64,000 nucleotides of DNA from an uncultured Alphaproteobacteria bacterium (GCA_944392785.1 CALXXW010000025.1:43264-107263); one strand, 5' to 3'; shown: positions 19,107 to 57,362, counted from the first letter of the stretch. The notes: generated by a model not told the origin, from the letters alone. Numbers and translations are program-made.

Positions 19107-19107
<1 letters not shown>

Positions 19108-22361: not shown

Positions 22362-22383
22362 AAAAAACGTATGTTAGGTCGGT

Positions 22384-22414
22384 AAAAGCAGGGAGCTTAT
22401 CTCTCCCTGCTTTT
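22384..22414 (+). terminator. Intrinsic terminator/attenuator between pflB and pflA
   Basis: AAAAGCAGGGAG-cttatct-CTCCCTGCTTTT (8-bp GC-rich core flanked by an A/T extension). Confidence 0.6.
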
Positions 22415-22430
22415 CATGTGAAAGGAAAAA

Positions 22431-26575: not shown

Positions 26576-27498
26576 AAATCGCCGTGTTGGTGCCCTGTTA
26601 TAACGAGGAGATTTCTATTCGTCAAGTGATTAAGGATTGTCACCGCTACTTGCCGATGGCCGAGGTTTATGTGTATGATAATAATTCTCAGGATAAGACC
26701 GCCGAAATAGCCCGTTTGGCCGGTGCGCACGTTTTTTTTGAACATCATCAAGGAAAAGGCCATGTCGTGCGGCGTATGTTTGCGGATGTTGATGCCGATA
26801 TTTATGTCATGACGGATGGAGATGCGACCTATGATATAGCCAGTGTTCCGCGGATGATACGCCGTTTAGTGGATGAAAATTTAGATATGATAACCGGTGT
26901 GCGAAAAATAAAGGATGATTCCGAAAGTACGGTCTATCGTCCGGGACATCGATTCGGTAATTGGTTAATGACCCATATTGTTCATTTGTTCTTCGGGCGA
27001 CAAACAGAAGATATGCTGTCAGGGCTACGCGTTTTTTCACGTCGTTTTGTGAAGTCTTTTCCGGCAAATTCAACAGGTTTTGAAATTGAAACGGAATTAA
27101 CGGTGTTTGCCTCTTCTATGCACTTACCGCAGGCCGATTTTGAAACACCGTATTATGCGCGTCCGGCAGGGTCGCAAAGTAAGCTGTCCACGTTTAAAGA
27201 TGGCTATAAAATACTTAAAATGATTGCTCTTTTGATTAAGGAGGAACGCCCCTTATTGTTTTTTGGTCTGGGAGCGTTAGTCTTCTTTTTGTTATCGTTA
27301 GGTGCCGCCATTCCGGTTGTTATGCATTATTGGGAGACAGGGCTGGTTCCTCGTATTCCGACGACGGTTTTAGCCGTTGGCCTGGGATTATGCGGCGGTG
27401 TCAGCTTGGCTATCGCTCTGATTTTAGATACGGTTTCGAAAACAAAAAAAGAAGTGCGCCGTATGCGCTATTTATCTGTTCCTTTGATAAAAGAGTAG
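26572..27498 (+). CDS. GT2 polyprenyl-phosphate glycosyltransferase (GtrB/DPM1-like) with C-terminal TM helices
   Basis: Start trimmed to MKIAVLVPCYNEE. DNNSQDKT; MTDGDATY; two C-terminal TM segments. Confidence 0.85.
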   Translation: MKIAVLVPCYNEEISIRQVIKDCHRYLPMAEVYVYDNNSQDKTAEIARLAGAHVFFEHHQGKGHVVRRMFADVDADIYVMTDGDATYDIASVPRMIRRLVDENLDMITGVRKIKDDSESTVYRPGHRFGNWLMTHIVHLFFGRQTEDMLSGLRVFSRRFVKSFPANSTGFEIETELTVFASSMHLPQADFETPYYARPAGSQSKLSTFKDGYKILKMIALLIKEERPLLFFGLGALVFFLLSLGAAIPVVMHYWETGLVPRIPTTVLAVGLGLCGGVSLAIALILDTVSKTKKEVRRMRYLSVPLIKE

Positions 27499-27511
27499 AA
27501 AGAGGCTTGAT

Positions 27512-29470
27512 ATGTTTTCAAATTATCGGACAGTCTATTGGATTAGCTTAGTGATGAGCCTTTTCTTTTTTGCTCCTTTCTCGGTTGCTTGGTCGACCGA
27601 TGTTTGGATGCGATTTGTTCGGATTACAGAGTGGGTATCATGGGGTTTTCCGATGGGAGAGGTCCTTAGTTATGCTCAGAATGCACCATTTGGGCATGAG
27701 ATGCACTGGACACGCCCCTTGGATGTGATTGGATATTTGGGGGCCTGGCCGTTTATTCCGACATATGGGTTGAAACGGGCCATTGAACTGATGTCTTATT
27801 TTGTACCGATTTTGGTTTTTGCTGTTGGGTTACGAGGATTTTTCTATGGCGTCAAGGGGTATATAACACCGAAAGGTGCTTTTTTGGCCTTTTGGCTTTT
27901 GTTTTGGAGTGTCGGATACGTTTGGACACAATCTCAAACCGGCTATTTTGATCATCATGTGTTTCATTTTTCATTGTTGGTGTGGGTGCTTGCCCTTGTG
28001 GCACGTAGCTTTATCGTTCGCCGAAAACAGATGTTGATGATAATCGCCGGTATTTTAACCGCTTTGGGAACGTGGATAACGGCAGAGTTTTTTATCAATA
28101 GCTACATTGTGCTAACACCCTTTATGATGACGTGGTTGTTATACCACAAGTCGTTAAAGGCCCCTTTAATTTATACGGTTTCTTATACATTCACCTTGTT
28201 GGTGGCGATGATATGGGATCATCCTTTGTCCGGTTTTATGACGCTGGATTTGTATCGCGCTTCGATGTTTCATGTGGTGTTGGGCGGTATGAATAGTGTG
28301 GCTTTGCTCATTCTGCATATGATGCGTCCTTGGCTTTCCCGCGTTTTATCCCGTTTGATCTGGGGCGGAGTGATGGCAGCGGTGTATATCAGTATCTTAT
28401 TGGGGGTATTCACGGATGTGCTGATCGTCCCGATGACAGATCCTTTTTTATATCATGTTTGGGTTAAAAAAGTCGGAGAAATGCAACCTATTTGGCATGA
28501 TTGGGTATGGTGTATTACACAGATTTTTGTGCCGGTGGTGATGGGATTATGGGGGCTTTTTACCGTTATTCGAGCACCGCGGCGTAAGCATACCCGCTTG
28601 TTGTTGTTGACGACGACGGGACTGATATTTTATGCGTTGTTGATGATCTTGCATATACGCACAGGAGTCAGTGTGAATGCTTTCTTTATTTTTACCGGAG
28701 CGCTTTTCTTTTACGATGTCTTTTTCCCGCGGGAAAAATCACGGCGCTATACCTTGTTTTTTGTTTTACTGTATTTGTTGTTTATGGGGGCTCATACACG
28801 TGGGACCGGACTTGTTATCGCCTTTAAAATATGGGGCGTCAATCATTATCTGGAATTGTATGAAAACAATCCGGATGTTTCGATTCCTTCCTATTTTCGG
28901 GAAGAGTTTGAATCCATTATTCAAAACAGAAAGAGAGATAAACCGGCCTCTGAGAAAAAGGAGACTCGGAACACATCCCTTTCTTTAAATGAAAAGATGG
29001 CTAATGATCATGATTTTCAGTGTTCCGTTTTCCCCAAAAGTATCCGAGAAAAAATCATTCAAGATAGACAAAACGGCGTTTTGCTGACGGATATTTTTGA
29101 TGCGCCTCAAATTGTTTGGGAAACGGGAAAACCCGTCTTGGGCGGGCCCTATCATACCAACATATCGGGGCTGACGGACTTAACGATGATTTTTTTGGAT
29201 CAACCTCCTTATGAACGCGCGCGTCAGTTGGTACAAAAACGAGGCATTACACAAGTTTATTTGACAAATCCCCGGTGTCAAAATTATTGGTTATCGTCTC
29301 ATACGCAAAAGGATTCAGAGTGGAAGCCCGAGCGCTTTTTCTTCTATGCCGTTTACTATGATATGCCAGAGGCTCCGGATTGGCTCAAACTGGAGTATGA
29401 AGATTCAAAAACAAAAGCCAAGCTGTTTCGGGTCTCTTTTCCGGATCAAGTTAACAAAGAAATAAAATAG
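27512..29470 (+). CDS. Polytopic GT-C-type glycosyltransferase candidate
   Basis: 652 aa with ~12 TM helices followed by a soluble C-terminal domain. It follows the GtrA and GtrB-like genes (three-component periplasmic glycosylation layout). The family was not resolved by eye. Confidence 0.55.
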   Translation: MFSNYRTVYWISLVMSLFFFAPFSVAWSTDVWMRFVRITEWVSWGFPMGEVLSYAQNAPFGHEMHWTRPLDVIGYLGAWPFIPTYGLKRAIELMSYFVPILVFAVGLRGFFYGVKGYITPKGAFLAFWLLFWSVGYVWTQSQTGYFDHHVFHFSLLVWVLALVARSFIVRRKQMLMIIAGILTALGTWITAEFFINSYIVLTPFMMTWLLYHKSLKAPLIYTVSYTFTLLVAMIWDHPLSGFMTLDLYRASMFHVVLGGMNSVALLILHMMRPWLSRVLSRLIWGGVMAAVYISILLGVFTDVLIVPMTDPFLYHVWVKKVGEMQPIWHDWVWCITQIFVPVVMGLWGLFTVIRAPRRKHTRLLLLTTTGLIFYALLMILHIRTGVSVNAFFIFTGALFFYDVFFPREKSRRYTLFFVLLYLLFMGAHTRGTGLVIAFKIWGVNHYLELYENNPDVSIPSYFREEFESIIQNRKRDKPASEKKETRNTSLSLNEKMANDHDFQCSVFPKSIREKIIQDRQNGVLLTDIFDAPQIVWETGKPVLGGPYHTNISGLTDLTMIFLDQPPYERARQLVQKRGITQVYLTNPRCQNYWLSSHTQKDSEWKPERFFFYAVYYDMPEAPDWLKLEYEDSKTKAKLFRVSFPDQVNKEIK

Positions 29471-36697: not shown

Positions 36698-39193
36698 TTA
36701 GAAATTATATCTGATATTTAAAGTACCCGCATTGTTGTCATAGTCTGACTTAAATACACCATCATAGCGTAAAGAAAGTTGAACTTTCCGAGCGATATTC
36801 AGTGTCAGACTGGCCTGAACCTCAACGCCGAAGGGGTCGGTTTCCTCCTGCATAACGGTATAAGTTGCCCCCAGCGGGATTGTCACACGACGATCGCCAT
36901 CCTCCGGCTGTAAGATATCATAAGTAGCCGCGCCCCCGATTGTTCCGCGTAAACTTGAATAACGGGACAAAGGTAATTCAACATCATATTTGGCACCCAA
37001 TAAAGCCGTCAGCACGTTTGATGTGACACCTTCCACTTCCTGTCCGGCAGAATCGGTGTATTTCTTTTCATCAATGCGATAATAGCGCAAGCTTCCATAA
37101 GGCATGACATCTCCGGTGTAAAGTTTCATCAGCTGAATATGACCTAAATTAATTCCATAACTGGTTTGTAAAGCGATGGTATTGACATCATACTCAGCTT
37201 CCAGAGGAATGGTGGGGAAATGTTTGTCTTCCGTATATTGAGACATGCTATAGCTGGCTATTAAGTTCCAGAACTTTCTTCCCGTATCATATTCCATATA
37301 TCCGATAATAGAGTGCGTATCAATATCAATATCTTTGGCTCCTGAATTCAAATTAGCCTCAGATTTCGTATATCCGTAGCCCAACCCGGCGCGTAAAGAA
37401 CGCCGCAAATAGTTATCAAATCCGATGATAAGTGTCTTATCATTTGTCTCAAAGCCATAATCGCTGTCGAAAGAACCGTCCCCATAGGAGGCTTGAGCCC
37501 ATAACGTGTTGGCATAATTTGGTTCACGCTTGATATATTGCCCGGCACGACTGCGTTTATAGCCGGTCGTGTGGGTTAAGCGATCACTCACCATATTGAA
37601 GATTTGACGATTAATAGCCATGGAAACAACGGGTGCCACCGGCGCCACGTTTGGTTCAAGAGCTTCTGCCGCTTTATGCAAGGCAGCATAGTCCGGATTA
37701 TCAATCGCTAAATCCTGCAGAATGTCCGCAATTTGGTCTTGCAAAGAACCTTCCGGGAAATCGTTATCTCCCAGCCAGATATCGACACCGTTTTCCAATT
37801 CCGGAGCAATATCGTACCAAATGGCGTGGATATAAAGCTGCTTATCGGCACCAAAATAGGCTCGATAACGACGCCCTACACGCCAGTTAAGGGTGGCCCC
37901 TTGATCTCCTGTTGTATCGACAAGTCCGGTCCCTGCCGTTTCATTCAAATCGATAACGCCGGCACTGGTATCACCAAAAATGCTGAAAGAAATGGTATTT
38001 CCTTTTGAAACAAGATTATTTCCCACGCGAATATCAATATCCGTGTTGTTTGTTTTACTTAAATCAATGCTGTTTGCTTCAATTGTGGTATATGTTGTGG
38101 CATTTTCCAAATAAATTGATAACTGTCCGCCGGCAGACATAGTGAAATCATCGGCCTGCATGGAATAACTACCCAAATTCAAAGTTGCGCCACTGTTGAC
38201 GGTGACGTTGGTGGTTTTATCAACACCAAAGACATCATTGACACCGACAAGCAACGTTCCTCCGTTAATGTTGACCGCCGTTGCATTATTGATACCGGCC
38301 GTTAAGGCAACGGTTCCGCTGTATCCGCTGTTTCCACCTGCTGTGGCACCGTTAATGTTAACGGAATAGGTGTTTGTGTTGGTATTTAATCCATCAATAC
38401 CGCCGGTTATCCCCAGCAGACGTCCATCGGCAGCATTCAGCGTAAGCACCGAGTCGCGAGCGACCACAGCGCCATTGACCGAGACGCCTCCCATCTGGAT
38501 ATCATTCCCACCGGCGGAAGCTTCATTTCCAATAAAGACCACATCTTCATTTTCGGCGTTAATGGTCAAGTCACCGGCCGAATAAATAGCACCGCCGCCA
38601 TAAGAACCGGTTTGGGTTGTTCCCAAGGCTTTGTTGTAGCCAAAGCTGGTATCCGTAATGACCAAGCTTTCCGAGGCCGAGTAGATGGCACCACCGGCAC
38701 CGGTTGCTTCGTTATATGAAAATATCGAGTTATCAATGGTGGAAGGTGTCGCCCCGACCGTAATGGCCAGAGCACCGCCGTGTTTTCCGGCAATGGTATC
38801 CCAGGTGACATCTCCGGTATCCGCATCGACACTGGGTTGGTACCCGGCACGGTTGTAGGAAAAAGTTGAATCCGAAATATCCAGATAGCCATTTTCTACA
38901 TAAATAACACCACCGTTATAGTCATTTTCAGAGACGTCTGTACCGCCTGTGCCGCTTCCATATGCACCGGCAATGTTGTTGGTAAACGTTGAGCTGCTGA
39001 TAGTCAGACGCGTGCTGCTGTCATCTGGTGTAAATAAATACACCCCGTCTTGAGAATTAGTGACTGTAGAGCCGGCTATGGTTTGTGCTCCTGAAATGAC
39101 ATCAAAAGTATCTTTTGTCTCGGAACGCACCGGTGCGCTTGCTAATATGGTTGACATGAAGAAAAAGGCGGCTGAGAATGTCTTTATGCGCAT
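36698..39193 (-). CDS. Autotransporter adhesin with polymorphic-membrane-protein (PMP) repeats
   Basis: Signal peptide, repeated GGAIY/FxxN units (FSYNEATGAGGAIYS, FGYNKALG...GGGAIYSAG), and a C-terminal ~270-aa beta-barrel ending in F. Confidence 0.85.
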   Translation of the reverse strand: MRIKTFSAAFFFMSTILASAPVRSETKDTFDVISGAQTIAGSTVTNSQDGVYLFTPDDSSTRLTISSSTFTNNIAGAYGSGTGGTDVSENDYNGGVIYVENGYLDISDSTFSYNRAGYQPSVDADTGDVTWDTIAGKHGGALAITVGATPSTIDNSIFSYNEATGAGGAIYSASESLVITDTSFGYNKALGTTQTGSYGGGAIYSAGDLTINAENEDVVFIGNEASAGGNDIQMGGVSVNGAVVARDSVLTLNAADGRLLGITGGIDGLNTNTNTYSVNINGATAGGNSGYSGTVALTAGINNATAVNINGGTLLVGVNDVFGVDKTTNVTVNSGATLNLGSYSMQADDFTMSAGGQLSIYLENATTYTTIEANSIDLSKTNNTDIDIRVGNNLVSKGNTISFSIFGDTSAGVIDLNETAGTGLVDTTGDQGATLNWRVGRRYRAYFGADKQLYIHAIWYDIAPELENGVDIWLGDNDFPEGSLQDQIADILQDLAIDNPDYAALHKAAEALEPNVAPVAPVVSMAINRQIFNMVSDRLTHTTGYKRSRAGQYIKREPNYANTLWAQASYGDGSFDSDYGFETNDKTLIIGFDNYLRRSLRAGLGYGYTKSEANLNSGAKDIDIDTHSIIGYMEYDTGRKFWNLIASYSMSQYTEDKHFPTIPLEAEYDVNTIALQTSYGINLGHIQLMKLYTGDVMPYGSLRYYRIDEKKYTDSAGQEVEGVTSNVLTALLGAKYDVELPLSRYSSLRGTIGGAATYDILQPEDGDRRVTIPLGATYTVMQEETDPFGVEVQASLTLNIARKVQLSLRYDGVFKSDYDNNAGTLNIRYNF

Positions 39194-39342: not shown

Positions 39343-41850
39343 TTAAAAGAACAGGCGCAGGTCAATCAATCCGGTGTGATTTTGATAATCGGATTTAAAG
39401 AGACCTTGATATGTCAGGCCTATCTGTACTTTTTGGGCGATATTTAAGGAAGTGCGAGCCTCGGCTTCAACACCGAAGCGTTCCTGTTCTTCCGGTATAA
39501 TGGTATAGCGTCTTCCGCTGGGGATAATCACATCTGTCGTCCCTTTGGGCTTGATAAAGTCATAGGTGGCAGAAGCTCCCAATCGGGTGCGCAGTGCCGA
39601 GCTTTTTCCCAATGGGAATTCGACATCATACATTAATCCGACCAAGCCCGTCAGAACGTTCATATCTGTCTCGTCGACTTGCTGTCCCAGTGAGTCGGTA
39701 TAGGCTTCGCGCTGAATGTTAAAATAGCGTGTTCCGACATTGGGGACCAGATCCCCGGTCAGCCAGTCACCCATTCGCATATATCCCAAGCTATATCCTA
39801 ATTTGGAGGATACGGCAATAACATCCGTGTCATAATCAGCGGTGATACGGAATCCGGCCGCCGTGCTTTCTTCCTCATAGGATCCTCTGCCGTAAGAAGC
39901 AATGATATTCCAAAATAAAGCTCCCGGATTATATTCTCCATAGATAAACCCACTGTGGGTTGTTTGGTCGATTGCCCGATTGATACTGTCAATGTCAGAG
40001 GTTGTGTAGCCATATCCCAAACCTAAACGCATATCTTTTGTCGGGAAAAAGTCTAACCCGACCGCAAGGGTGTCATTTGTCGCATCATAAGCATATGCTT
40101 TGGAATAATCAGCATCTCCATGAGCACCCAATACCCATAAAGCGCCGGCTCTGTGTGGGTCTATCACACGTTCGCCATAGCTTTGGCGCGTGGGAGCATA
40201 GTTGCTGGCATGCTTGAGTCGATACTCCACTAAATTGAAGAGCTGACGACCAATTTCTTGTGATTGCGTCGCAACAATAGGCGCAATGTTCGGTGCAATA
40301 CCGATTAAAGCATTTTTGAATTCATGTGGGTCGTCTAAGTAGAGGTTATTTAACTCATCAATGAAATCACCTTCATCCCTCATCCAAGCATTGACGATAC
40401 GGCATAAATTTCCATCGGTGAGGTTGTACTTAGAACAAATCTCCGACCAGTCGTCTTGTCCCGGAATATCCGTTCCCGGTTCATCCGGACCAGGATCCGG
40501 GTTTGGATCGATAGGTCCGGTTGTATCCCAAAGCTTGATATGCAATAAATTGTCTGATCCGATATAGCCAATATACTGATTGCCGTTAATGGCAAAATTT
40601 TGATTGATAAGTGAGGCATCTATATTGACTGTTCCCTCGCTGACGTTAAAAATATCAAACGTTTTTTCTTCTTGAGGGGCTAATGTAAAGGCGCCATCCT
40701 CAACTGTGATTTTGAATTTTGTTGTGCTTTGTATGGTAGCTCCGAAGGAAATCGTATTGGCCAATAAATTTCCAAAAACAGTTTCCGATTCAATAGTCAA
40801 TCCTAATTTTCCCCCGTCTGAGAAAGAAAAAGAACGAGCTTCGGTTTGCCAACTGCCAATATCTAACAATCCCCCGATAACGGCAACGTTGACTCCGTTG
40901 GATAGGTCTTTTTCACCCGATCCGAAAGCCTGGACGCCGTTCAGGCGTAATGTCCCGTTATACAGATTGATATCCGTTGCATGAAGAATGGTGCCATAAC
41001 GATTAAGAGTCTCATTGCGTGTCAAATCGATGATGCCGTTCAGTCCCGAACCATTGTTGATGTTAACGGCATAAGTGGCAACCTGGGTGCGATGCCCGTC
41101 AATACCACCGTCAAAACTGAGTGTGTATCCATCTGCGGCATTTAAGTTTAACACCTTTCCATAGGCTTCTCCGCCGGCAACGTCTGAATCCGTTCCGCCC
41201 ATGTGAATATCATGGCCACCTTCCATTGCTTGATTACCCGAGAAAATAACATCTTTGGAGAAGGCGCTGACTGTCATGCTGCGTGCCGAATAAATAGCTC
41301 CGCCGCCTGTGTAGGGAGCTGTTGTTCCAGTCCCGGAGCTATTTGTCTCGCCACGACTGATATTGTTTGTAAAATTCGTATCCGTCAGCAGAGCATTGTC
41401 TGTGAAATTTAAAATAGCACCGCCGGCTCCGGCTGCCTCGTTCGCGTGGAATGAGGAGTTATCAATAACCAAGCTGCCTCCTAAATACATATAAATGGCT
41501 CCGCCGCTTTGAGCCATAACAGTACCGAAGCCGCTACCCGTTGAGTTGTTATTGAATATAGTATCCGTGACATGTACATGGCTGTTGGTGTCGCCGAAGA
41601 TAGCTGCTCCGCTGTAGCGCATCCCTTCCACATTAACAGTATTACCGCTGAATGTCAGACCGTTCACATAGACGACATCAGGATGATCCGTGATTTTGAT
41701 GACGCCGTCGACTTGCCCGGATTGACTCTGAAGATTGTCGGGCGTTCGGGTAGAGGTAAAGTCGTAAACAGCAGCCTCTGTCGTATTTGAAAAATAGGTT
41801 GACAAAAATATCAAGGTTATAAAAAACGCGAACAAAGATGTTAAATGCAT
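39343..41850 (-). CDS. Autotransporter adhesin with PMP repeats (paralog)
   Basis: Same architecture as the neighbour: GGAIYMY, FHANEAAGAGGAIL and GGGAIYSA repeats, a Pro-rich linker (PIDPNPDPGPDEPGTDIPG), and a C-terminal barrel ending in F. Confidence 0.85.
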   Translation of the reverse strand: MHLTSLFAFFITLIFLSTYFSNTTEAAVYDFTSTRTPDNLQSQSGQVDGVIKITDHPDVVYVNGLTFSGNTVNVEGMRYSGAAIFGDTNSHVHVTDTIFNNNSTGSGFGTVMAQSGGAIYMYLGGSLVIDNSSFHANEAAGAGGAILNFTDNALLTDTNFTNNISRGETNSSGTGTTAPYTGGGAIYSARSMTVSAFSKDVIFSGNQAMEGGHDIHMGGTDSDVAGGEAYGKVLNLNAADGYTLSFDGGIDGHRTQVATYAVNINNGSGLNGIIDLTRNETLNRYGTILHATDINLYNGTLRLNGVQAFGSGEKDLSNGVNVAVIGGLLDIGSWQTEARSFSFSDGGKLGLTIESETVFGNLLANTISFGATIQSTTKFKITVEDGAFTLAPQEEKTFDIFNVSEGTVNIDASLINQNFAINGNQYIGYIGSDNLLHIKLWDTTGPIDPNPDPGPDEPGTDIPGQDDWSEICSKYNLTDGNLCRIVNAWMRDEGDFIDELNNLYLDDPHEFKNALIGIAPNIAPIVATQSQEIGRQLFNLVEYRLKHASNYAPTRQSYGERVIDPHRAGALWVLGAHGDADYSKAYAYDATNDTLAVGLDFFPTKDMRLGLGYGYTTSDIDSINRAIDQTTHSGFIYGEYNPGALFWNIIASYGRGSYEEESTAAGFRITADYDTDVIAVSSKLGYSLGYMRMGDWLTGDLVPNVGTRYFNIQREAYTDSLGQQVDETDMNVLTGLVGLMYDVEFPLGKSSALRTRLGASATYDFIKPKGTTDVIIPSGRRYTIIPEEQERFGVEAEARTSLNIAQKVQIGLTYQGLFKSDYQNHTGLIDLRLFF

Positions 41851-41995: not shown

Positions 41996-42322
41996 ATGTT
42001 CTTAAAACCGCACAAAGGGGGATATATGCTATCTGTACGTGTGATGCCGAATGCTCGGCATAATGGTATAGAGGGTATATGGAATGAGACATTTGTTAAA
42101 ATAGCGCTTTCGGCGCCGGCGGTTGATGGTAAGGCTAATGAAGCGCTGATTTCTTTAATAGCGGATAGGCTTCATATCAGAAAAAGTGCCGTTTCCTTAA
42201 TTTCCGGAATTAAGTCTCGGGAAAAACGTTTGGGAATTCATGGGGAATTACCGTCGGAGACAGTCGCCGCTTTTGAAGAAGAAATAAGAGCGACATGTCA
42301 ATCAGGGAAAGCACTTTATTGA
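41996..42322 (+). CDS. DUF167 (YggU-like) protein
   Basis: VRVMPNARHNGIEGIWNE...ALSAPAVDGKANEALISLIADRL pattern. Confidence 0.7.
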   Translation: MFLKPHKGGYMLSVRVMPNARHNGIEGIWNETFVKIALSAPAVDGKANEALISLIADRLHIRKSAVSLISGIKSREKRLGIHGELPSETVAAFEEEIRATCQSGKALY

Positions 42323-44940
42323 GCCTGTGATTTGTCACGAATCAACATTTTGGTTGAGATGTCAGAAGGGGTTTTTTCCTTATTTCCTTGGCTTTTCAAG
42401 ATATGTGACGGCGTCGGATTAAAAAGGGATAAGATGAAAGGCTGATGTGTTTGTTGAAATATCGTCATATAGTGATTTAACAAGCTTTCCCAGTTTTCGG
42501 TAGCGGTTTCTTTTTGATGGGTAGCGACTCTTTTTTTCAATATATCAATCATATCGAACACAGGCTGTGTTCGGCCGCCATATAGTTTGTCCGAAAAATA
42601 CCACAAGTAAGAGATATCGTTGCCTTTTTCTGGGACATCCGCATGTTCATTCACGGTTTTTACGGATTCTTCAGGAGATAGAACCTGGGGATGTGCAAGT
42701 GTCAGGGGGCCGTATACCGGGTGAATTACCCCGATAAGACCTTGATTTTCGCTTGGAAAAATTTCGGAAAAATGAATGGTCTGTTGAGGCAATAACGTCA
42801 TATCCACATAGTATATATAATCATATCGATACAGATTACGGCGCACACGATTAAACATATCAAAATGAGAGAATTCTTGTTCTTGCGACGATTCAAGATA
42901 GATTGGACTGACGTTTGATGGGAATTTTTTTGTTTTATCATCGGTAAAGACAAAGTAGTGCTTTTTATTTGTTGGCGCAAAATGGGTCTCCATTGCTTGA
43001 TAGAACGTCTCCCAAAGTGCCGTATCAGAACCGGTTGCAACCGAGAGAATGGCAATTTCCTTGTCTTTATCCTGAGCTTCGATACGGACCCACTCCTTGG
43101 GTAAAATTTTGTTGACACTGTTTGGGTCGATAAAATCCCAGTGGGTCGGAGCCAGCACAATTTTATGCGGATTATCGTTCAGCCAAGCTCCCCACCATGA
43201 AAAGGTGGAATTGGCGATAATGTTATGCTTGCACAGGCTCATCAGTTGCATATCGCGCCAGTCCGGTTTCCCCTGATTCACGTCAACAAAAGTAATGGAG
43301 GCATCCTTGATGATGAAGTTTTTTTTCGCCCAATTCAAGTCATTTGAAAAAACAAAAAAAGTCGGATGATCAACGTGCTTTTTGATATAATCAATAGCGT
43401 TTTCGTAATAAGAAAGAGGAATGCTAAAATAGTCCGAGTTATTGATATAATCTCCTCGCCTGATGTGAATGGAGACACTGTTTTCTGAGGTGATTCTGGA
43501 CAGCAGTTGTTGAGTTGCCGCATCATCGCTGGGAGGATAGCGCCAGCGTAAAATCTGACGTAATGCTTCCTCTTCTTGCTCCAAGAAAAAGGGTGTTTGC
43601 ATATAGCCATGTATTGAAATAAGATCCGGCTGTTTAAAGCGTGTTGGGGAATAATCAAAAGATGATGTTTTTGACCGCCACCGTTGTCGGGCTTGTCCCG
43701 GCATACTGGTATATAAGAGAAGGTTATGGGGGTTGAGAACGGGATCATCTGCCGTGAAAATGTTTTGAATTTGAGCATTGTTCGTATACAGTGTTTTCCC
43801 ATGTTTGAGTGCATAGGCTTTGGCGCTGGCGTATTGAAACAGCACATTTCCTAAACCGCCCAGATAAAGGATTTCTACATTTTCCTGAATTTTATCCGGA
43901 TGAGAATAAAATAACTCAAAGGCGATTGTATTGGCAATTAGGCGTTGGTTGGATTGGCTTCTGTGATTTTCTCGCCATGTATGGATTTCGTCCATATAAG
44001 CTTTATATTCTTCCTCGGGCATATTTTTGATGTATTGATACAACTCGTCATATGATTCAAACTTTGTCATATCAATAAAACACGTGGACGGAATATACTC
44101 GGCGATATTAGGGGCACCCAGATAGATGGGTATCGTGCCGGCCGATAAAGCTTGATAGATTTTTTCTGATACGTAGTTATCGGCGCGCGCATTTTCAAAA
44201 ACAAAGGCGAATCGAGCCCGGGATAAAGCCTGATAAGAATCTTCAGCATATCCCAGATATCTTTGATCGAAAATTTGGCGTGTTTGGGCGGAAAAACGTT
44301 TGCGATATAATTCCCATCCGCGACCATACAGATAAAAGTCTTCGGGATGATTTTCCATGAACCAATGTATCAATCTTCGTCGTTCTTGGTAAATGTTGTG
44401 TTCCTTGCTGGAGCGTAAATTGCCCCCCATATAGACGGCTAATACATCTTTTGGCAGCGTTTTTTTTGACCAGGTGATGGGATCATATGGTATGGGAAGA
44501 TAGAAGTATTTTTGATTATCCACTAATTTTTTATCCCATGTGAAAATTTTATTCATATGTCGGACAACCTCATCCGAGGGAGGAATTTGGACACCGATGG
44601 GAGATTCTTGCAACCATAAATAACTATGCTTGGCTTGTTCCTTTGTCGGGATAGTATAGTTGCGCCAAGCATAGACAACCAAATCACTTTCCTCCGGAGG
44701 ATACATATCCTGTGTCATCAGCATATAGCCGTTTCTAGCAAAATGACGTTGCAGATGTCTTGCCCATTCAAAATCGTCAAAAATACGATTGTTCAAGCCG
44801 CTATCCCACACATATAAGGTTGCTTTTCGAGGACCTTGTAATCCCAGCCATAAAAAACCAATCAATATCATCTCCAAAATGGCTAAACTCACGGAAGCCA
44901 GCTGCCATCGTCCAAGAAAAAGGGTTGAGAAATGTTTCAT
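42316..44940 (-). CDS. Membrane-anchored tri-domain glycosyltransferase: GT10 (alpha1,3/4-fucosyltransferase-like) + GT11 (alpha1,2-fucosyltransferase-like) + GT6 (alpha1,3-Gal/GalNAc-transferase-like)
   Basis: N-terminal TM helix. GT10 motif FAFVFENARADNYVSEKIYQALSAGTIPIYLG (aa ~244-274). GT11 motifs GGLGNVLFQY, SIHIRRGDY and ANSTFSWWGAWL (aa ~355-600). GT6-like segment HYFVFTDD, YDYIYYVDM, LIGVIHPVYG, LWYFSDKLYGG and NWESLLNHY (aa ~625-845). Confidence 0.85.
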   Translation of the reverse strand: MKHFSTLFLGRWQLASVSLAILEMILIGFLWLGLQGPRKATLYVWDSGLNNRIFDDFEWARHLQRHFARNGYMLMTQDMYPPEESDLVVYAWRNYTIPTKEQAKHSYLWLQESPIGVQIPPSDEVVRHMNKIFTWDKKLVDNQKYFYLPIPYDPITWSKKTLPKDVLAVYMGGNLRSSKEHNIYQERRRLIHWFMENHPEDFYLYGRGWELYRKRFSAQTRQIFDQRYLGYAEDSYQALSRARFAFVFENARADNYVSEKIYQALSAGTIPIYLGAPNIAEYIPSTCFIDMTKFESYDELYQYIKNMPEEEYKAYMDEIHTWRENHRSQSNQRLIANTIAFELFYSHPDKIQENVEILYLGGLGNVLFQYASAKAYALKHGKTLYTNNAQIQNIFTADDPVLNPHNLLLYTSMPGQARQRWRSKTSSFDYSPTRFKQPDLISIHGYMQTPFFLEQEEEALRQILRWRYPPSDDAATQQLLSRITSENSVSIHIRRGDYINNSDYFSIPLSYYENAIDYIKKHVDHPTFFVFSNDLNWAKKNFIIKDASITFVDVNQGKPDWRDMQLMSLCKHNIIANSTFSWWGAWLNDNPHKIVLAPTHWDFIDPNSVNKILPKEWVRIEAQDKDKEIAILSVATGSDTALWETFYQAMETHFAPTNKKHYFVFTDDKTKKFPSNVSPIYLESSQEQEFSHFDMFNRVRRNLYRYDYIYYVDMTLLPQQTIHFSEIFPSENQGLIGVIHPVYGPLTLAHPQVLSPEESVKTVNEHADVPEKGNDISYLWYFSDKLYGGRTQPVFDMIDILKKRVATHQKETATENWESLLNHYMTIFQQTHQPFILSLFNPTPSHILKSQGNKEKTPSDISTKMLIRDKSQAQ

Positions 44941-45740
44941 GATCGCTTACTCCGTATGTGATTGCTGCTTTCATAGCGTTTGAGGCCCTGATAAAAGCTG
45001 AAAATAGCCAAACCAAAAAAGCCGACAGAAATACTCAGAATGGTGATTATTTTCCCGAAAGAGGGTGTATGTATCATCTCAATCGGTAAGATAGACATGA
45101 CGCCGGCCGGGAAAATAAAAATCAGGATGAATTTGGCAAGACCGCTATAGATACATCCGGGATAGCCGGCTATGTTAAAAAATATGAAAAAAAGGCGCTC
45201 GCTTAAGTCAGAGGCATCACGCGCATAAAAAGGAATAGAGCTGAAAAGAATACTCATACTCAAGAACAATAAAGCCGCCGCAAGGAACATCAGGATGATA
45301 ACTCCCAGATTTCCTGGGGTGATAAGGCCGGAAAAAGACATTAACAAACAGCCGGAAATCAAGTCCCCTAAACCTGAAGCATCCGAAACAGAGCAACAAA
45401 TATGGAATAAAGGATTGCGCGGTTGAATGAGATAAGGGTCCAACTCTCCGAATTCAATCAGTCGTGCCAAATGAATACCGGCTCCTCGGAAAAAAAGCGT
45501 GAACAGGCTCAATGCGGCGATGACCAATCCGCTCATGAACATAAAATCCGAAAACGCCCATCCGTTAATATGGTTAAATGATTGAAAGACGGCCCACCAT
45601 CCGACCAATAAAATAAGATTGTTCAAACACATAAAGACAATGCGTCCGAAAAAAGCCGTCTTAAGCGCAAAAGCCGACTTGGCCGCTAATTTAAGCAGAG
45701 AAAACCAGAAATCCAGCTGTTTAACCGCCATTAATCGCAA
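44937..45740 (-). CDS. ABC-2-type transporter permease (DUF990-like)
   Basis: Six TM helices, 267 aa. Translationally coupled to its neighbours on both sides. Confidence 0.7.
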   Translation of the reverse strand: MRLMAVKQLDFWFSLLKLAAKSAFALKTAFFGRIVFMCLNNLILLVGWWAVFQSFNHINGWAFSDFMFMSGLVIAALSLFTLFFRGAGIHLARLIEFGELDPYLIQPRNPLFHICCSVSDASGLGDLISGCLLMSFSGLITPGNLGVIILMFLAAALLFLSMSILFSSIPFYARDASDLSERLFFIFFNIAGYPGCIYSGLAKFILIFIFPAGVMSILPIEMIHTPSFGKIITILSISVGFFGLAIFSFYQGLKRYESSNHIRSKRS

Positions 45741-46509
45741 CCTTTCGCATCAAGAGGACATACATCAGTTTAAGTATACCGGAGATGCCTATTATCCACA
45801 ACAGCAACATGCCACCGGTTTGAACGGCACTTATCCAACTGAATTCGTAAATCAAGTGGCTGACACCATATCCGGCATATCCAAACGGTGTGCTCATAGC
45901 CAGTGTCTGAAGCCATTGAGGATATAAAGTCAAAGGAAAAAATAACCCTCCCAGGATATATTCTGCCTTTTGAATCATCCAAAATAAGGGTAAAGAGTCT
46001 TGCAGGAATAAAGCGGATAAACCAACAAAAATGGTCCCCAAGGAAAGCACAATCATGGAGAGTGTCAACAAAATGAGAATGACGGGAAAAGCTTGAAAAT
46101 CGTGAGGTAGTTCTCCACCGCTTAAATAAATGGCCCATATACCGCCAAAGAACAGCAAAATCGGCAGACGTACCAAGAAAGTTCCCAAACTTTCACATAA
46201 TTTGGCCCCGATATAGGAGACGGGTCTCAATAAACAGTAGGCGATATCTCCTGTTCGGACATCCTCTTCTATCCGGCGATGCAAGCCTTCCGGGCGCCCA
46301 TATTGCAACAGGCATCCCAGCAACAAATACCATATCAAATCTGTCGGTTGAATCGTTTGACTGTCTAAGGTTTCTGCTTTGACAACCATCCAAAATTGTC
46401 GAAATATGGTCAGCATGATCAACATTAAGAGAACGCGGGCGCTCAACGTTTTGAGATGAGAGATTTGTTCTCGGGCGGCAGCCAACAATAATGTCAGATA
46501 CTTTTTCAT
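45721..46509 (-). CDS. ABC-2-type transporter permease (DUF990-like)
   Basis: RTGDIAYCLLRPVSY motif, six TM helices. It overlaps the ATPase stop. Confidence 0.7.
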   Translation of the reverse strand: MKKYLTLLLAAAREQISHLKTLSARVLLMLIMLTIFRQFWMVVKAETLDSQTIQPTDLIWYLLLGCLLQYGRPEGLHRRIEEDVRTGDIAYCLLRPVSYIGAKLCESLGTFLVRLPILLFFGGIWAIYLSGGELPHDFQAFPVILILLTLSMIVLSLGTIFVGLSALFLQDSLPLFWMIQKAEYILGGLFFPLTLYPQWLQTLAMSTPFGYAGYGVSHLIYEFSWISAVQTGGMLLLWIIGISGILKLMYVLLMRKVAINGG

Positions 46510-47426
46510 AGGCTTTCCCTTTGATACAAGCTGCGAATAATTTCTTCCAGCGGCGGGTTTGAAATACTCATATCCGATAGATGCCCGCTTTGTGTCAGGC
46601 GCATAATTTCTTGAGCCAGATCTGAGCTATTGACGGATATCCGTCTTTCTTCTTTGTGACCGTCAGCATAAAAGGCCGTTATGACTTTTTCCGTTATATA
46701 TTTTTGTTTTAAAATATCCAGCGTGGTATCTAAAATTAAGCGGCCCTTGTTGATTAAAATGACACGGTGGCAAATTTCTTCGATATCACCGGTATCATGT
46801 GACGTTAACAGAATAGTCATCCCTTCTGTCTGAGCTAATTTCTTCAAGGTCTTACGAATGATATTTTTGGCCGTAATGTCTAGACCGATGGTCGGTTCAT
46901 CCAAGAATAAAATTTCGGGTTGATGGATTAAGGAGGCGACAATTTCACAACGCATGCGCTCGCCCAATGACAACTGTCTGACGGGGCGAGAGATGAAAGA
47001 TTCAATTTGAAAAAGTCGCGCCAGATAGCTTTGTCTTTTTTGGATATCCGCATTGGATAGACCGTACATTTTTCCGATTAAGCGGAAAGAATCCGCTGCC
47101 GGCAAATGAAACCACAACTGCGAGTGTTGACCGAAAATGACACCGATACGCGGTAATAGGTGTTTGCGAGCTGTCCAAGGATTCATTCCCAACAAAGAAA
47201 TGTCGCCGTTGGTCGGATATAAAATAGCCGTTATCATTTTAATGGTTGTTGATTTACCGGCTCCGTTCGGTCCTATGAAGGCCACACATTCGCCTTTGGT
47301 GACGGAAAATGAAATATCTCGCACAGCATGTATTATTTTATTCCCTTGTTTGCTTTTGACGGGGAAAGATTTACTGAGGTGTGTGACACACAGAGCCGTT
47401 GTTGATGTTGTATCAGATGTATTCAT
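46506..47426 (-). CDS. ABC transporter ATP-binding protein
   Basis: Walker A GPNGAGKST, signature LSLGERMR, Walker B ILFLDEPT. Confidence 0.9.
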   Translation of the reverse strand: MNTSDTTSTTALCVTHLSKSFPVKSKQGNKIIHAVRDISFSVTKGECVAFIGPNGAGKSTTIKMITAILYPTNGDISLLGMNPWTARKHLLPRIGVIFGQHSQLWFHLPAADSFRLIGKMYGLSNADIQKRQSYLARLFQIESFISRPVRQLSLGERMRCEIVASLIHQPEILFLDEPTIGLDITAKNIIRKTLKKLAQTEGMTILLTSHDTGDIEEICHRVILINKGRLILDTTLDILKQKYITEKVITAFYADGHKEERRISVNSSDLAQEIMRLTQSGHLSDMSISNPPLEEIIRSLYQRESL

Positions 47427-47580: not shown

Positions 47581-47609
47581 ACTATAAACCAAAATATGAT
47601 TATTTTCAA
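47581..47609 (-). promoter_or_regulatory. Promoter of the peptide/ABC-2/tri-GT operon
   Basis: Minus strand: TTGAAA, a 17-nt spacer, TATAGT. Confidence 0.5.
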
Positions 47610-55283: not shown

Positions 55284-57362
55284 ATGGCTCGCACAACACC
55301 TATTGAAAAATATAGAAACATTGGTATTATGGCGCATATTGATGCCGGTAAAACGACGACGACAGAGCGTATTTTATACTATACGGGTAAGTCTCATAAA
55401 ATCGGTGAAGTTCATGATGGCGCCGCTACAATGGACTGGATGGAGCAAGAGCAAGAGCGTGGTATTACCATTACCTCGGCTGCGACAACGGCTTTCTGGA
55501 AAGGTCATCGTATTAATGTTATTGACACGCCGGGCCACGTTGACTTTACGGTTGAGGTGGAGCGTTGTTTGCGCGTTTTAGATGGTGCCGTCACGGTTTT
55601 TGACGGTGTGGCCGGTGTTGAACCGCAATCCGAAACCGTCTGGCGTCAAGCAGATAAGTATGGTGTTCCTCGTATTTGCTTTGCGAATAAGATGGACCGT
55701 ATCGGTGCTAATTTCTTGCGCTGCGTTGATATGATTAAGACGCGGTTGGGTGCTCGTCCGATGGTGATGGCTTTACCAATCGGGGCAGAGGCAAATTTCG
55801 TCGGTATTGTTGATATTTTAAAGCGTAAAGCTATTATTTGGCACTCCGAGGATTTGGGTGCGACTTTTGAAGAACAGGAAATTCCCGCCGAATTAAAAGA
55901 ACAAGCCGATAAGTATTATCATGAAATGGTCGAAATGGCCGTTGAAATGGACGATGAGGCGATGGAGGCTTACCTGGAAGGAAAAGAGCCGGATATGGAT
56001 ATGTTGAAAAAATGTATCCGTAAGGGGACGATTTCTCGTTCATTTGTGCCTGTTTTCTGCGGTTCAGCCTTTAAAAACAAAGGTGTCCAGACATTGTTGG
56101 ATGCTGTTGTTGATTATTTACCGTCACCGGTGGATATTCCGCAAGCTCATGGTGTTTTGGCCGGGACGGATACAGAGTATGTTTGCGCTTCGGAAGACAG
56201 TAAACCGTTTGCCGGATTGGCATTTAAGATTATGAACGATCCTTTTGTCGGTTCATTAACTTTTGTGCGCATTTATCAAGGAACACTGACCGGTGGAACA
56301 TATGTCAACAATACGGTCAAGGATAAAAAAGAGCGTATTGGTCGTATGCTGTTGATGCATGCCAATCACCGTGAAGAGATTAAAGAAGCTCACGCCGGTG
56401 ATATCGTGGCCTTGGTTGGTTTGAAAGATACAACAACGGGTGATACACTTTGTGGGGATAACCTGAAAGTTGTTTTGGAGAAAATGGACTTCCCTGATCC
56501 GGTTATTGAAATCGCGGTTGAGCCAAAAACAAAGGCTGATATCGAAAAAATGGGATTGGCTTTGAATCGGTTGGCTATGGAGGATCCTTCATTCCGTGTT
56601 GCGTCTAACACAGAAACGGGACAAACGATTATTAAGGGAATGGGAGAACTTCACTTGGAAATCATCGTTGATCGTTTAAAACGTGAATTCAAGGTGGAAG
56701 CAAACGTTGGTGCTCCTCAAGTGGCCTATCGTGAAACTATTTCCAAAGTGTATGATGAAGACTATACACACAAGAAACAATCAGGTGGTTCGGGTCAATT
56801 TGCGCGTGTGCGTATTAAATTTGAACCCTTGCCTCCGGGATCGGGATTTGTTTTCGAAAATACAGTTGTTGGCGGGTCTGTTCCTAAGGAATATATCCCG
56901 GGTGTTGAAAAGGGGCTTCGTGCTTCTTTGGAAAGCGGCGTTTTGGCCGGTTTCCCTTGCACGGATTTTAAAGCCAACTTGTATGATGGGGCATATCATG
57001 ATGTTGACTCGTCGACTATGGCCTTTGAGATTGCAGCACGTGCGGCTTTCCGCGAGGGTATGGCTAAGGCCGGTCCAAAATTGTTGGAGCCTATCATGAA
57101 AGTCGAAATCGTCACGCCAGAAGATTATATGGGAGATATTATCGGTGACTTGAATTCACGTCGTGGTCAGGTGTTGGGGATGGATCAACGAGGTAATGCT
57201 CGCGTGATAGATGCTCATGTTCCTCTGGCCAATATGTTCGGATATGTGAATACACTTCGTTCAATGAGTCAGGGACGTGCTCAATACTCCATGGTATTTG
57301 ACCATTATGCGGATGTTCCTCAGATGGTTGCAGATGAAATCAAAGCAAAAGTAGCTGGTTAA
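55284..57362 (+). CDS. fusA: Elongation factor G
   Basis: [29 protein letters not shown], 692 aa. Confidence 0.97.

Follow-up and report, generated by a model that had tools for sequence, protein, structure and literature searches.

The window, the whole 64-kb stretch of DNA that was analysed, comes from an uncultured alphaproteobacterial lineage and not from a chlamydia. Its triple-glycosyltransferase (GT) gene and the neighbouring features are as follows.

41996..42322, plus strand: DUF167/YggU gene, convergent with the GT gene and sharing 7 nt with its 3' end; marks the end of the operon
42316..44940, minus strand: triple-GT ORF of 874 aa (stop codon 42316-42318), encoding an anchor and then GT10, GT11 and GT6
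42319..43074, minus strand: GT6-derived module (aa 623-874) with a GT-A fold but an eroded donor site and no C-terminal tail
43075..43890, minus strand: GT11 module (aa 351-622; Pfam PF01531), alpha1,2-fucosyltransferase type, apparently intact
43891..44835, minus strand: GT10 module (aa 36-350; Pfam PF00852), alpha1,3/4-fucosyltransferase type, apparently intact
44839..44907, minus strand: N-terminal hydrophobic helix (aa 12-34; Kyte-Doolittle and AlphaFold2) with a conserved mid-helix Glu23
44937..45740, minus strand: ABC-2 permease, PF06182 (ABC2_membrane_6), whose stop overlaps the GT-gene start by 4 nt
45721..46509, minus strand: second ABC-2-type permease, with weak DrrB-like matches only
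46506..47426, minus strand: DrrA/NodI-like ABC transporter ATPase (Pfam ABC_tran), gene 1 of the operon
47581..47609, minus strand: intergenic sigma-70-like hexamers TTGAAA-17-TATAGT upstream of the ATPase gene; the count of such sites in the region is at or below shuffled expectation

The triple-GT gene is genuine and vertically inherited, and encodes a membrane-anchored protein with three GT modules. It forms one uninterrupted frame of 2625 nt, in which family HMMs, built from single-domain homologues, delimit GT10, GT11 and GT6 in series, as the first-pass annotation had proposed for a single polypeptide. Every motif quoted there is present in the ORF: FENARADNYVSEKIYQALSAGTIPIYLG (aa 248-275), GGLGNVLFQY (361-370), IHIRRGDY (491-498) and ANSTFSWWGAWL (576-587) in the GT10 and GT11 modules, and HYFVFTDD (661-668), YYVDM (710-714), IHPVYG (739-744), LYGG (786-789) and NWESLLNHY (816-824) in the GT6 module. 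That annotation had also raised the concern that a frameshift or an assembly error might have fused separate genes into the three-domain ORF. We found no support for such an artefact. Counterpart 874-aa ORFs, identical or 98% identical, occur in four further assemblies (contigs of at most 257 kb), and the 2625-nt ORF is shared at 98-100% amino-acid identity by five assemblies from different samples. Furthermore, GT6 homology is confined to one frame when the orthologue GT6 domain is compared with the window by tblastn, and two divergent orthologues, P0002 (54% identity) and P0145 (~37% identity), have the same domain architecture and gene order. A chimeric or frameshifted origin was rejected on these three grounds and has a negligible probability.

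The GT gene is translationally coupled and comes last in a four-gene operon that also encodes an ABC-2-type transporter. Its ATG overlaps the permease stop as ATGA, with GGAG ~11 nt upstream, and the convergent DUF167 gene lies beyond its 3' end, which agrees with its earlier placement at the end of an ABC-2 operon. The order ABC-2 permease, fusion gene (4-nt overlap), convergent DUF167 gene is conserved in three lineages: the permease-then-GT arrangement with the 4-nt overlap also occurs at loci L001, L082 and L083, the second permease is kept in L001 and L083, and the DUF167 neighbour is shared with L082 and L083-L086. The ATPase matches NCBIfam TIGR01188 (205.7 bits) and NodI models, in each case short of the cutoff, and lacks an additional C-terminal domain. 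A Pfam/NCBIfam profile search of the operon's transporter genes revealed neither a Wzm-type permease (PF01061) nor a Wzt ATPase, and the likeness to Wzm/Wzt glycan export appears to be one of operon logic only; a glycan-export role of the transporter is suggested solely by the conserved operon structure. Mimicry of a mammalian host by a surface glycan, which the first-pass annotation considered to fit the exporter, is likewise no more than an inference. Two autotransporter genes adjoin the operon region.

A single hydrophobic helix precedes the three modules, matching the one anchor described previously. Its Kyte-Doolittle score is 2.23 (aa 14-32), and AlphaFold2 places it at aa 4-34. The flanking charges, +2 on the N-terminal and +1 on the C-terminal side, would not favour a cytoplasmic catalytic domain, and they bear on an alternative in which such N-termini of the GT10 subfamily are true export signals (Sec signals) or type II-like anchors. 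The catalytic domains would then be extracytoplasmic and would act on host or environmental glycans with foreign nucleotide sugars; the triple GT would be secreted or surface-exposed, and a donor-dead GT6 would serve as a lectin-like H-antigen targeting domain. Consistent with this, the helix carries no less positive charge on its N flank than on its C flank in both the window protein and P0002, P0145 opens with a signal-peptide-like MKRWLLCFLMMLVPCIALA/DTPE, comparable signal-, lipobox- or anchor-like N-terminal segments occur in 19 of 25 stand-alone GT10 homologues, and the autotransporters lie next to the locus. However, nucleotide sugars, which Leloir glycosyltransferases require, are not known to occur in the periplasm, and the close translational coupling to an inner-membrane ABC exporter is consistent with synthesis at the cytoplasmic face. 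Moreover, the GT6 tail of the orthologues resembles the C-terminal basic-hydrophobic-basic region of bacterial GT6s, proposed to keep cytoplasmic GT6 enzymes on the cell membrane during O-antigen synthesis (PMC3516806). We regard export as very unlikely; if it did occur, the protein would be a Leloir enzyme that uses GDP-Fuc supplied from outside to remodel glycans of the host or of neighbours.

The GT10 module is matched by PF00852 at aa 233-332 (61.6 bits, cutoff 23.9) and by the GT10 family HMM at aa 17-344 (363 bits), and keeps 36 of 39 family-conserved positions. E112 (in ESP of the N-terminal lobe), R187, E249, N250, Y256, E259 and K260 occupy sites that are 100% conserved in 25 homologues. 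The alpha1,3-FucT motif FxxxFENxxxxxY(V/I)(T/S)EK is present as FAFVFENARADNYVSEK (aa 244-260) and aligns to residues 238-250 of H. pylori FucT (N240, Y246, E249 and K250 there). In FUT9, Glu137 is the catalytic base, and Arg202 and Lys256 are positioned on the diphosphate (PMC12717137); motif alignment suggests that E112 is the counterpart of Glu137. Sequence matches in the PDB are mango FUT13, H. pylori FucT and FUT9, and the AlphaFold2 model (pLDDT 91.9) has a GT-B fold with 2nzx/2nzw (H. pylori FucT) and 8d0o/8d0w (FUT9) as best Foldseek matches (E ~1e-9, target TM 0.5-0.6). In the GT11 module, PF01531 matches aa 484-620 (93.3 bits, cutoff 23.9), and the GT11 family HMM is covered in full at aa 359-620, its 262 bits equalling the score of the orthologues. 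Of 58 positions with a conservation of 85% or more across 41 homologues, 53 are kept; the donor motif HxRRGDY is complete (H492, R494, R495, G496, D497, Y498), and NSxFSWW(x)AWL is also retained. Thus, both modules are apparently intact, as a predicted alpha1,3/4-fucosyltransferase (GT10) and a predicted alpha1,2-fucosyltransferase (GT11).

The domain and catalytic-residue comparisons that bear out GT10 and GT11 do not do so for an active GT6. The window protein has no match to PF03414 (Pfam GT6) at E<=0.01, whereas P0002 and P0145 do; the NCBIfam family-6 model NF041524 matches aa 628-837 (E 6e-27), but the 94.6 bits fall short of its curated cutoff (250). The GT6 family HMM gives 146 bits (aa 620-872) versus ~360 in the orthologues, and 34 of 58 conserved positions are kept versus 56 of 58 in P0002. 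The PDB sequence match is likewise reduced, with E 1e-6 over the N-terminal half only, compared with 7.5e-38 over the full length for P0002. Nevertheless, the predicted GT-A fold is of GT6 type, pointing to descent from this family: the best 50 Foldseek matches of the AlphaFold2 model (pTM 0.83, with a low-confidence segment at domain residues ~130-160) are all BoGT6a or human GTA/GTB (E ~1e-15, TM 0.6-0.7), with BoGT6a ranked first (TM ~0.7).

BoGT6a from Bacteroides ovatus (PDB 4AYL, 4AYJ, 4CJ8), which the C-terminal module matches best in both sequence and fold, is a metal-independent blood-group A-type GalNAc transferase whose characterised acceptors are 2'-fucosylated (PMC3516806). It is a stand-alone enzyme of ~250 aa, whereas in the window protein GT6 comes third in a fusion of 874 aa. 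With BoGT6a residue roles taken from PMC3516806 (Table 4) and PMC3961637, eight conserved donor contacts are lost (Y13, W66, T70, R73, N95, G156, H190 and D191), of which R73, N95, H190 and D191 are 99-100% invariant. The donor-site changes are Y13D, T70E, R73H, N95D, G156D, G157K and deletion of W66 and of H190/D191; in BoGT6a, Y13, W66, T70, R73 and G156 contact the diphosphate and the sugar. By contrast, all four contacts with the acceptor (H antigen), His122, Tyr153, Trp189 and Glu192, are retained as H740, Y781, W817 and E818, the last being the catalytic Glu; K870, T636 and the HP motif are also present. The DxD motif had been described as reduced to a single Asp, as in bacterial GT6 variants. 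The Asp is there, in D713-M-T715 in place of N-A-N of BoGT6a, and the window GT6 has neither DxD nor NxN; the comparison with bacterial variants was mistaken, for these carry N-x-N (PMC3516806), all 120 bacterial homologues compared (100%) begin this motif with Asn, and its forms in the orthologues are NGN and NAN. The invariant W-H-D-E-S is also absent from the window GT6, W817-E818-S819 being left after deletion of the donor-sugar His-Asp pair, with the catalytic Glu alone kept. At the donor-specificity triad (human codons 266-268), the window protein has S-D-K and none of the A/B-gene motifs catalogued in PMC5377540, while P0002 has AGG and P0145 has MGA. Finally, the C-terminal GG..LR tail with the Arg243 equivalent is missing. 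In P0002 and P0145 the conserved GG..(L/F)R tail, which the crystallised BoGT6a construct does not reach, is the counterpart of the basic-hydrophobic-basic region of bacterial GT6s (PMC3516806). The GT6 modules of both orthologues are canonical and have the NxN motif, WHDES motif and AGG-type triad in common with BoGT6a, and the fused GT6 descends from this NxN (BoGT6a-like) clade.

Erosion and acceleration are specific to the window lineage and to the GT6 domain: Tajima relative-rate counts are 49:12 for GT6 (P=2e-6), 26:25 for GT10 and 12:21 for GT11. Across five strains the ORF is intact, and the polymorphisms (6 synonymous, 7 nonsynonymous) give a pN/pS of 0.31 (P=0.036 versus neutrality), which shows the GT6 domain to be still under weak purifying selection. 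This selection, together with the survival of E818, K870 and T636, runs counter to a donor-dead module. The first-pass annotation had all three modules active, building A/B-Lewis b/y epitopes, with D-M-T and W-E-S taken here as a functional variant. Indeed, E818, K870, the HP motif, Y781 and W817, the predicted fold, the weak selection and the NCBIfam family-6 match would all fit an active GT6. Against them stand the loss of eight donor contacts, a >4000-fold reduction of kcat by N95D alone in BoGT6a (PMC3516806), a triad unlike any A/B-gene motif reported in PMC5377540, the missing Pfam match and the missing tail, and the claim of three activities in the window protein is not upheld; we consider it quite improbable. 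A GT6 that has been neofunctionalised, its fast divergence reflecting adaptive remodelling of the donor pocket for catalysis with another nucleotide sugar and/or acceptor, is unlikely, if somewhat less so. It would account for an acceleration confined to one domain with an unbroken reading frame, no indels other than in-frame ones and a low present-day pN/pS, and for the retention of the catalytic Glu and the diphosphate-binding Lys. However, the losses reach beyond sugar-reading residues to the UDP-diphosphate holders Y13 and W66, the model contains the low-confidence segment, and no proteins with the same variant motifs were seen outside the species cluster.

We favour, as probable, an explanation in which GT10 and GT11 are active and GT6 is a donor-dead remnant. 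Judged from its sequence, the window protein is most likely a bifunctional fucosyltransferase (alpha1,2 and alpha1,3/4) in which the GT6 remnant is non-catalytic, and its product is likely an H/Lewis ('group O'-like) rather than an A/B glycan, because the GT6 module has lost its donor-binding residues. GT11 would create an H-type determinant by adding alpha1,2-fucose to terminal galactose, and GT10 a Lewis y/b-type determinant by placing alpha1,3/4-fucose on the GlcNAc next to it. Both would act on a lipid-linked glycan made at the inner membrane, which is probably exported by the ABC-2 transporter encoded alongside. The PF06182 permeases are not of the Wzm family, and no GDP-fucose or UDP-GalNAc synthesis genes lie within the 64-kb window, two observations that do not fit this explanation easily. 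The donor, acceptor and linkage proposed for every member are extrapolations from the family to which it belongs.

E. coli O86 WbnK (GT11) and WbnI (GT6) and Helicobacter mustelae BgtA are separate B- or A-antigen enzymes, found as separate polypeptides in Wzx/Wzy-type O-antigen clusters, whereas here the modules are covalently joined, GT10 is added and an ABC-2 transporter adjoins. Similarly, H. pylori makes Lewis y with GT10 (FutA/FutB) and GT11 (FutC), both families being present here, and the window GT10 resembles H. pylori FucT both in sequence (E 2e-10) and in fold. The Fut enzymes are, however, separate proteins that attach to the membrane through heptad and amphipathic segments at their C-termini, and the window protein is a single polypeptide with an N-terminal hydrophobic helix. 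In the O86 and BgtA systems, Gal is alpha1,2-fucosylated, and a GT6 dependent on this fucosylated acceptor then transfers alpha1,3-Gal or GalNAc (PMC5377540, PMC4202792, PMC3516806); the same two steps would apply to the fused GT11 and GT6. PaGT6 of Parachlamydia acanthamoebae and the minimal GT6 of cyanophage PSSM-2 type are likewise GT6s outside vertebrates. PaGT6 is a GalNAc transferase that requires an H-type acceptor and is inactive on LacNAc lacking 2'-fucose (PMC3516806). Unlike the fused module from the NxN clade, it is a stand-alone, DxD-containing, metal-dependent 27-kDa enzyme without a membrane tail, and its host is Parachlamydia rather than an alphaproteobacterium.

GT6/GT11 two-domain fusions are common in metagenomes, and the triple fusion is rare: among the best 150 representative clusters, 38 join GT6 to GT11, in either order, and 2 combine all three modules. 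The architecture is conserved and uncommon, and the searchable literature holds no description of a triple GT10-GT11-GT6 fusion, in keeping with the first-pass annotation, which knew of no such protein. The metagenomic GT6/GT11 proteins (P0146, P0148, P0147) and GT11-GT10 proteins (P0003) also join consecutive blood-group/Lewis GTs, and P0146 aligns over its full length with the GT11-GT6 portion (E 4e-124). They differ in having either order and sometimes extra GT2 or methyltransferase domains, none unites all three modules, and P0148, unlike the window gene, has no ABC-2 neighbour. The need of GT6 for a fucosylated acceptor and the 38 fused clusters support a possible logic of fusing GT11 with GT6. 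In the ancestor, and in P0002 and P0145, a metal-independent, BoGT6a-like NxN GT6 would cap the H determinant with alpha1,3-GalNAc (P0002, AGG motif) or alpha1,3-Gal (P0145, MGA motif). In the window lineage, the UDP-sugar binding site and the C-terminal membrane-binding tail were lost, and therefore Gal/GalNAc transfer has most likely ended, which would make the window allele functionally a bacterial 'O allele'. Its GT6, still folded and under some constraint, may persist as a structural or H-antigen-binding element. A one-protein A/B-Lewis synthase, the function first proposed for the window protein, does not suit its eroded GT6 but fits the two orthologues with canonical GT6 modules, and P0002 (AGG) and P0145 (MGA) are thus candidates for a complete A/B-Lewis synthase.

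The window protein is encoded by a single unbroken ORF in an operon of four genes:

46506-47426: ABC transporter ATPase, overlapping with neighbouring operon genes
45721-46509 and 44937-45740: two ABC-2 permeases, overlapping
42316-44940, minus strand: GT10-GT11-GT6 fusion gene, 874 codons

The start codon of the fusion gene overlaps the stop codon of the ABC-2 permease upstream (ATGA), with GGAG about 11 nt before the start. The overlaps joining the ATPase, permease and fusion genes imply that the four constitute one translationally coupled unit, which stops against a convergent DUF167 gene. A scan for promoters and terminators returned site counts no higher than chance. All motifs listed for this gene in the first-pass annotation, which had read it from sequence as a possible one-protein A/B-Lewis synthase, are found in the ORF. 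Its assignment of three domains is supported by Pfam for GT10 (residues 233-332, 61.6 bits) and GT11 (residues 484-620, 93.3 bits), both well over the gathering score, but less so for GT6: the Pfam GT6 model PF03414 does not match the window protein, and the NCBIfam family-6 model, aligned to residues 628-837 (E 6e-27, 94.6 bits), remains far under its curated cutoff of 250. Using our own family HMMs, trained on single-domain homologues, the modules were delimited to residues 17-344 (GT10), 359-620 (GT11) and 620-872 (GT6), and the N-terminus is a hydrophobic helix of 23 residues. The fusion protein is thus anchored, conserved and made of three modules, and its gene is co-transcribed with, and translationally coupled to, those of an ABC-2 transporter. 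The 5' end of the gene, which codes for the anchor, and its permease junction lie in a hot spot of strain divergence (44750-44999), where strains otherwise 99.0% identical over 22.6 kb show 27 differences per 250 nt, compared with 0-5 per 250 nt elsewhere. Since these changes are mainly synonymous (dS ~0.72 vs ~0.04), the hot spot suggests a short tract of recombination and not the result of diversifying selection.

The three-module ORF is real and not an artefact. The same 2625-nt ORF is present in four more assemblies, on contigs of 72-257 kb and with 98-100% amino-acid identity. Furthermore, searching public databases for the same architecture, as the first-pass annotation had proposed, revealed two divergent orthologues, P0002 and P0145, in both of which GT10, GT11 and GT6 were confirmed by Pfam. 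P0002 (903 aa, 54% identity) is the only other full-length relative in 5.8 billion clustered proteins, and P0145 (886 aa, ~37% identity) came to light when 1.84 billion representatives were scanned exhaustively with HMMER. A scan of reference genomes with a two-sequence profile returned no relative, the lineage being absent or masked in that set; NCBI copies of the window protein exist, and no cluster member bears a source-given name. In all three lineages an ABC-2 permease is followed by the fusion, which it overlaps by 4 nt, and the convergent DUF167 gene is also shared wherever the contig reaches far enough. A frameshift in the divergent GT6 half might have concealed a canonical GT6; however, tblastn of the P0002 GT6 against the window DNA yields an alignment in a single frame, which excludes this. 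Together with the five assemblies and the two orthologues, this alignment dispels the concern, voiced in the same annotation, that a frameshift or assembly error had joined separate genes. As to other neighbours, in the P0002 lineage a gene for PagP (lipid A palmitoyltransferase; contig L001, 3786-4202) is inserted between the exonuclease and ABC ATPase genes, an insertion missing from the window and from strain contig L083. Downstream of the P0145 locus (contig L082, 4902-7730) are genes for an arylsulfotransferase (PF05935) and an OprB-type carbohydrate porin, neither of which is found at the window locus.

Judged by their residues, both fucosyltransferase modules appear intact. Among positions at least 85% conserved in 25 stand-alone homologues, the window GT10 keeps 36 out of 39, the same as P0002, including E112 (ESP motif), R187, E249/N250, Y256 and E259/K260. 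Its FENxxxxxYVSEK segment aligns to residues 238-250 of H. pylori FucT. The proposed catalytic base of FUT9 is a Glu that would, by motif alignment, be the equivalent of E112, and the diphosphate is held there by Arg202 and Lys256 (PMC12717137). GT11 keeps 53 of the 58 positions conserved among 41 stand-alone homologues, with a complete HxRRGDY. The AlphaFold2 model of residues 1-622 is confident (pLDDT 91.9); in structure it comes closest to H. pylori FucT and human FUT9, and next to the related fucosyltransferases NodZ, FUT8 and AtFUT1. Ungapped identity to P0002 is 62% in each of the two modules.

In GT6, identity to P0002 drops to 38% (25% in the C-terminal half), with indels. The P0002 module retains 56 of the 58 positions conserved among 121 GT6 homologues, compared with 34 in the window protein, and our GT6 family HMM scores about 360 bits each for P0002 and P0145 versus 146 bits for the window. 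P0002 GT6 matches human GTA/GTB with E about 1e-22. In the PDB, it matches BoGT6a, the metal-independent GT6 of Bacteroides ovatus, over the full length (E 7.5e-38), whereas the window protein does so at residues 628-743 only (E 1e-6). Transfer of the experimentally defined BoGT6a contacts (PMC3516806 Table 4; PMC3961637) to the window protein revealed extensive loss on the donor side: Y13, T70, R73, N95 and N97 are replaced by D639, E689, H692, D713 and T715, G156/G157 by D784/K785, and W66 and H190/D191 are deleted. The C-terminal GG..LR tail (Arg243 equivalent) is also missing; it corresponds to a basic-hydrophobic-basic region that has been described in bacterial GT6s as serving membrane association. 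The surviving donor-side residues are T10, the catalytic E192 (E818) and K231 (K870), and all four conserved acceptor contacts are kept (H122, Y153, W189 and E192). In BoGT6a, N95D alone lowers kcat more than 4000-fold and E192Q about 2x10^4-fold (PMC3516806). The donor-specificity triad (human codons 266-268) is AGG in P0002 and MGA in P0145, corresponding to the bacterial A-type and human B motifs, respectively (PMC5377540 motif catalogue), and SDK in the window protein. Thus, of the three active transferases initially proposed, GT10 and GT11 keep nearly all of their conserved residues, whereas GT6 has lost most of those of its donor site. Nevertheless, a GT-A fold of the GT6 type is predicted for the module (pTM 0.83; low confidence only at domain residues 130-160 and 221-229), and its top structural matches are exclusively BoGT6a and human GTA/GTB.

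Homologues were aligned domain by domain (A5 and A6); a global 120-sequence mixed-architecture alignment (A4) was dropped because it mis-registered GT10 and GT11 homologues onto the GT6 region. Since synonymous sites are saturated between the window and P0002, dN/dS was replaced with a three-taxon amino-acid relative-rate test and counts of within-species polymorphism. With P0145 as the outgroup, unique substitutions (window:P0002) number 26:25 in GT10, 12:21 in GT11 and 49:12 in GT6 (chi-square 22.4, P=2e-6 for the latter). The estimated GT6 branch of the window is 3.9x that of P0002, and 7x in the C-terminal half. The excess is confined to GT6 on the window branch, and the acceleration is therefore domain- and lineage-specific. 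Such a rate could reflect a pseudogene running free; however, the GT6 reading frame is intact in all five strains, its segregating sites (6 synonymous, 7 nonsynonymous) give a pN/pS of 0.31 (binomial P=0.036 vs neutrality), and a GT6 fold is predicted, ruling this out. The polymorphism pattern is indistinguishable from that of GT10+GT11 (Fisher P=0.53). The window GT6 can be regarded as the bacterial equivalent of a human O allele, with an eroded donor site and a probably inactivated A/B-transferase next to apparently intact fucosyltransferase modules. As a presumably dead module that is retained and constrained, it is a candidate pseudo-glycosyltransferase with acceptor-only binding.

From what is known of the families, the GT11 module would make Fuc-alpha1,2-Gal, GT10 would add Fuc-alpha1,3/4 onto GlcNAc, and GT6, where intact, would cap the H determinant, the predicted activity being that of a GalNAc transferase in P0002 and of a Gal transferase in P0145. 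Loss of the donor site in the window lineage predicts an H/Lewis y/b-type product without an A/B cap; speculatively, the kept acceptor site may leave the module able to bind the H determinant. From the conservation of the operon, we infer that the glycan is probably exported by the adjacent ABC-2 transporter. Its permeases belong to PF06182 rather than the Wzm family, and a literature search on PF06182 function returned nothing relevant. No transporter was found in the neighbourhood of P0148, a GT11-GT6 relative, and no sugar-nucleotide genes within the 64-kb window. The topology of the enzyme allows two readings. Leloir glycosyltransferases need cytoplasmic nucleotide sugars, and the catalytic domains are therefore taken as cytoplasmic. 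Alternatively, though with low probability, the enzyme could be exported, with its catalytic domains outside the cytoplasm: the N-terminus of P0145 is signal-peptide-like, and 19 of the 25 stand-alone GT10 relatives (e.g. P0165, P0168 and P0205) have signal-, lipobox- or anchor-like N-termini, which is unexpected for Leloir enzymes. The helix of the window protein is flanked by a charge of +2 on its N side, not counting the amino terminus, and of +1 on its C side.

The host of the fusion was assigned from other window genes. The closest relatives of EF-G (55284-57362) are alphaproteobacterial, at no more than 76% identity, and genes for LexA, pyruvate formate-lyase and its activase, and CorA are also present in the window, as is a standard str/S10 ribosomal operon. 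EF-G affinity and gene content together therefore point to an uncultured alphaproteobacterial lineage that is not closely represented in the reference set; uncultured Alphaproteobacteria are also the source of many of the nearest stand-alone GT6 proteins. A chlamydial origin was suggested by the adjacent Pmp-repeat autotransporters and the published Parachlamydia GT6 (PaGT6), but is ruled out by the alphaproteobacterial EF-G, by LexA, PFL and CorA, and by the placement of the fused GT6 in the NxN clade, as opposed to the DxD clade of PaGT6. The Pmp-type pair (36698-39193 and 39343-41850, minus strand) consists of tandem proteins of ~830 aa each with Chlamydia-type repeats, at least the first having an autotransporter beta-domain; it adjoins the fusion locus directly downstream and is conserved in strain contigs L083-L086. 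The host is probably anaerobic; pyruvate formate-lyase and its radical-SAM activase (20037-23180, plus strand) suggest an anaerobic or facultative lifestyle. A T7-like podovirus structural block (3649-11896, minus strand, and 13028-13696) includes a head-tail connector (PF12236, 10382-11896), a capsid protein (PF19821, 8487-9332) and capsid assembly, nozzle-like and gp14-like proteins; it is probably a prophage or prophage remnant, and an S24 peptidase/repressor-like gene lies close to it. A plus-strand trio at 26099-29470, comprising a GtrA-like flippase (26099-26575), a GT2 (26545-27498) and a 652-aa multi-spanning membrane protein with no Pfam match (27512-29470), resembles a Gtr-type periplasmic glycan-modification module; another GT2 gene is located at 19107-20018. 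Finally, the ATP synthase alpha ORF (14341-16161, plus strand) starts with a C-terminal delta/OSCP part (profile positions 98-172), which may reflect a delta-alpha fusion or just the choice of the first in-frame start in ORF calling.

As separate enzymes, such transferases are well known, namely, BoGT6a, PaGT6, WbnI/WbnK of E. coli O86, BgtA of H. mustelae and FutA-C of H. pylori (PMC3516806, PMC3961637, PMC5377540, PMC4202792), and our literature search found no paper on GT6/GT11 fusions or the triple fusion. What is new is the combination of known catalytic families in a rare architecture and, in the window copy, the probable domain-specific inactivation of the A/B-transferase module. Among the best 150 representative clusters, with Pfam checks, 27 are GT6-GT11, 11 GT11-GT6, 6 GT11-GT10 (P0003 and five others), one GT6-GT11-GT6 (P0149) and only 2 GT10-GT11-GT6. 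GT6 and GT11 are thus joined, in either order, in 38 of the 150, and some of these fusions have GT2 or methyltransferase domains in addition (P0150, P0155 and P0160). PaGT6 shows no activity on LacNAc unless this is fucosylated, and the characterised acceptors of BoGT6a are 2'-fucosylated (PMC3516806); this need for a fucosylated acceptor accounts for the frequency of GT6/GT11 fusions. Occurring in both orders, the fusions provide independent 'Rosetta-stone' support for an obligatory H-then-A/B order outside vertebrates. P0002 and P0145, in which GT6 is intact, are natural candidates for A- or B-Lewis synthesis by one polypeptide from a LacNAc-type acceptor, which, if true, would be useful in one-enzyme glycan synthesis. 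Overall, the finding brings an uncultured alphaproteobacterial lineage within the known range of ABO/Lewis-type glycosylation machinery.
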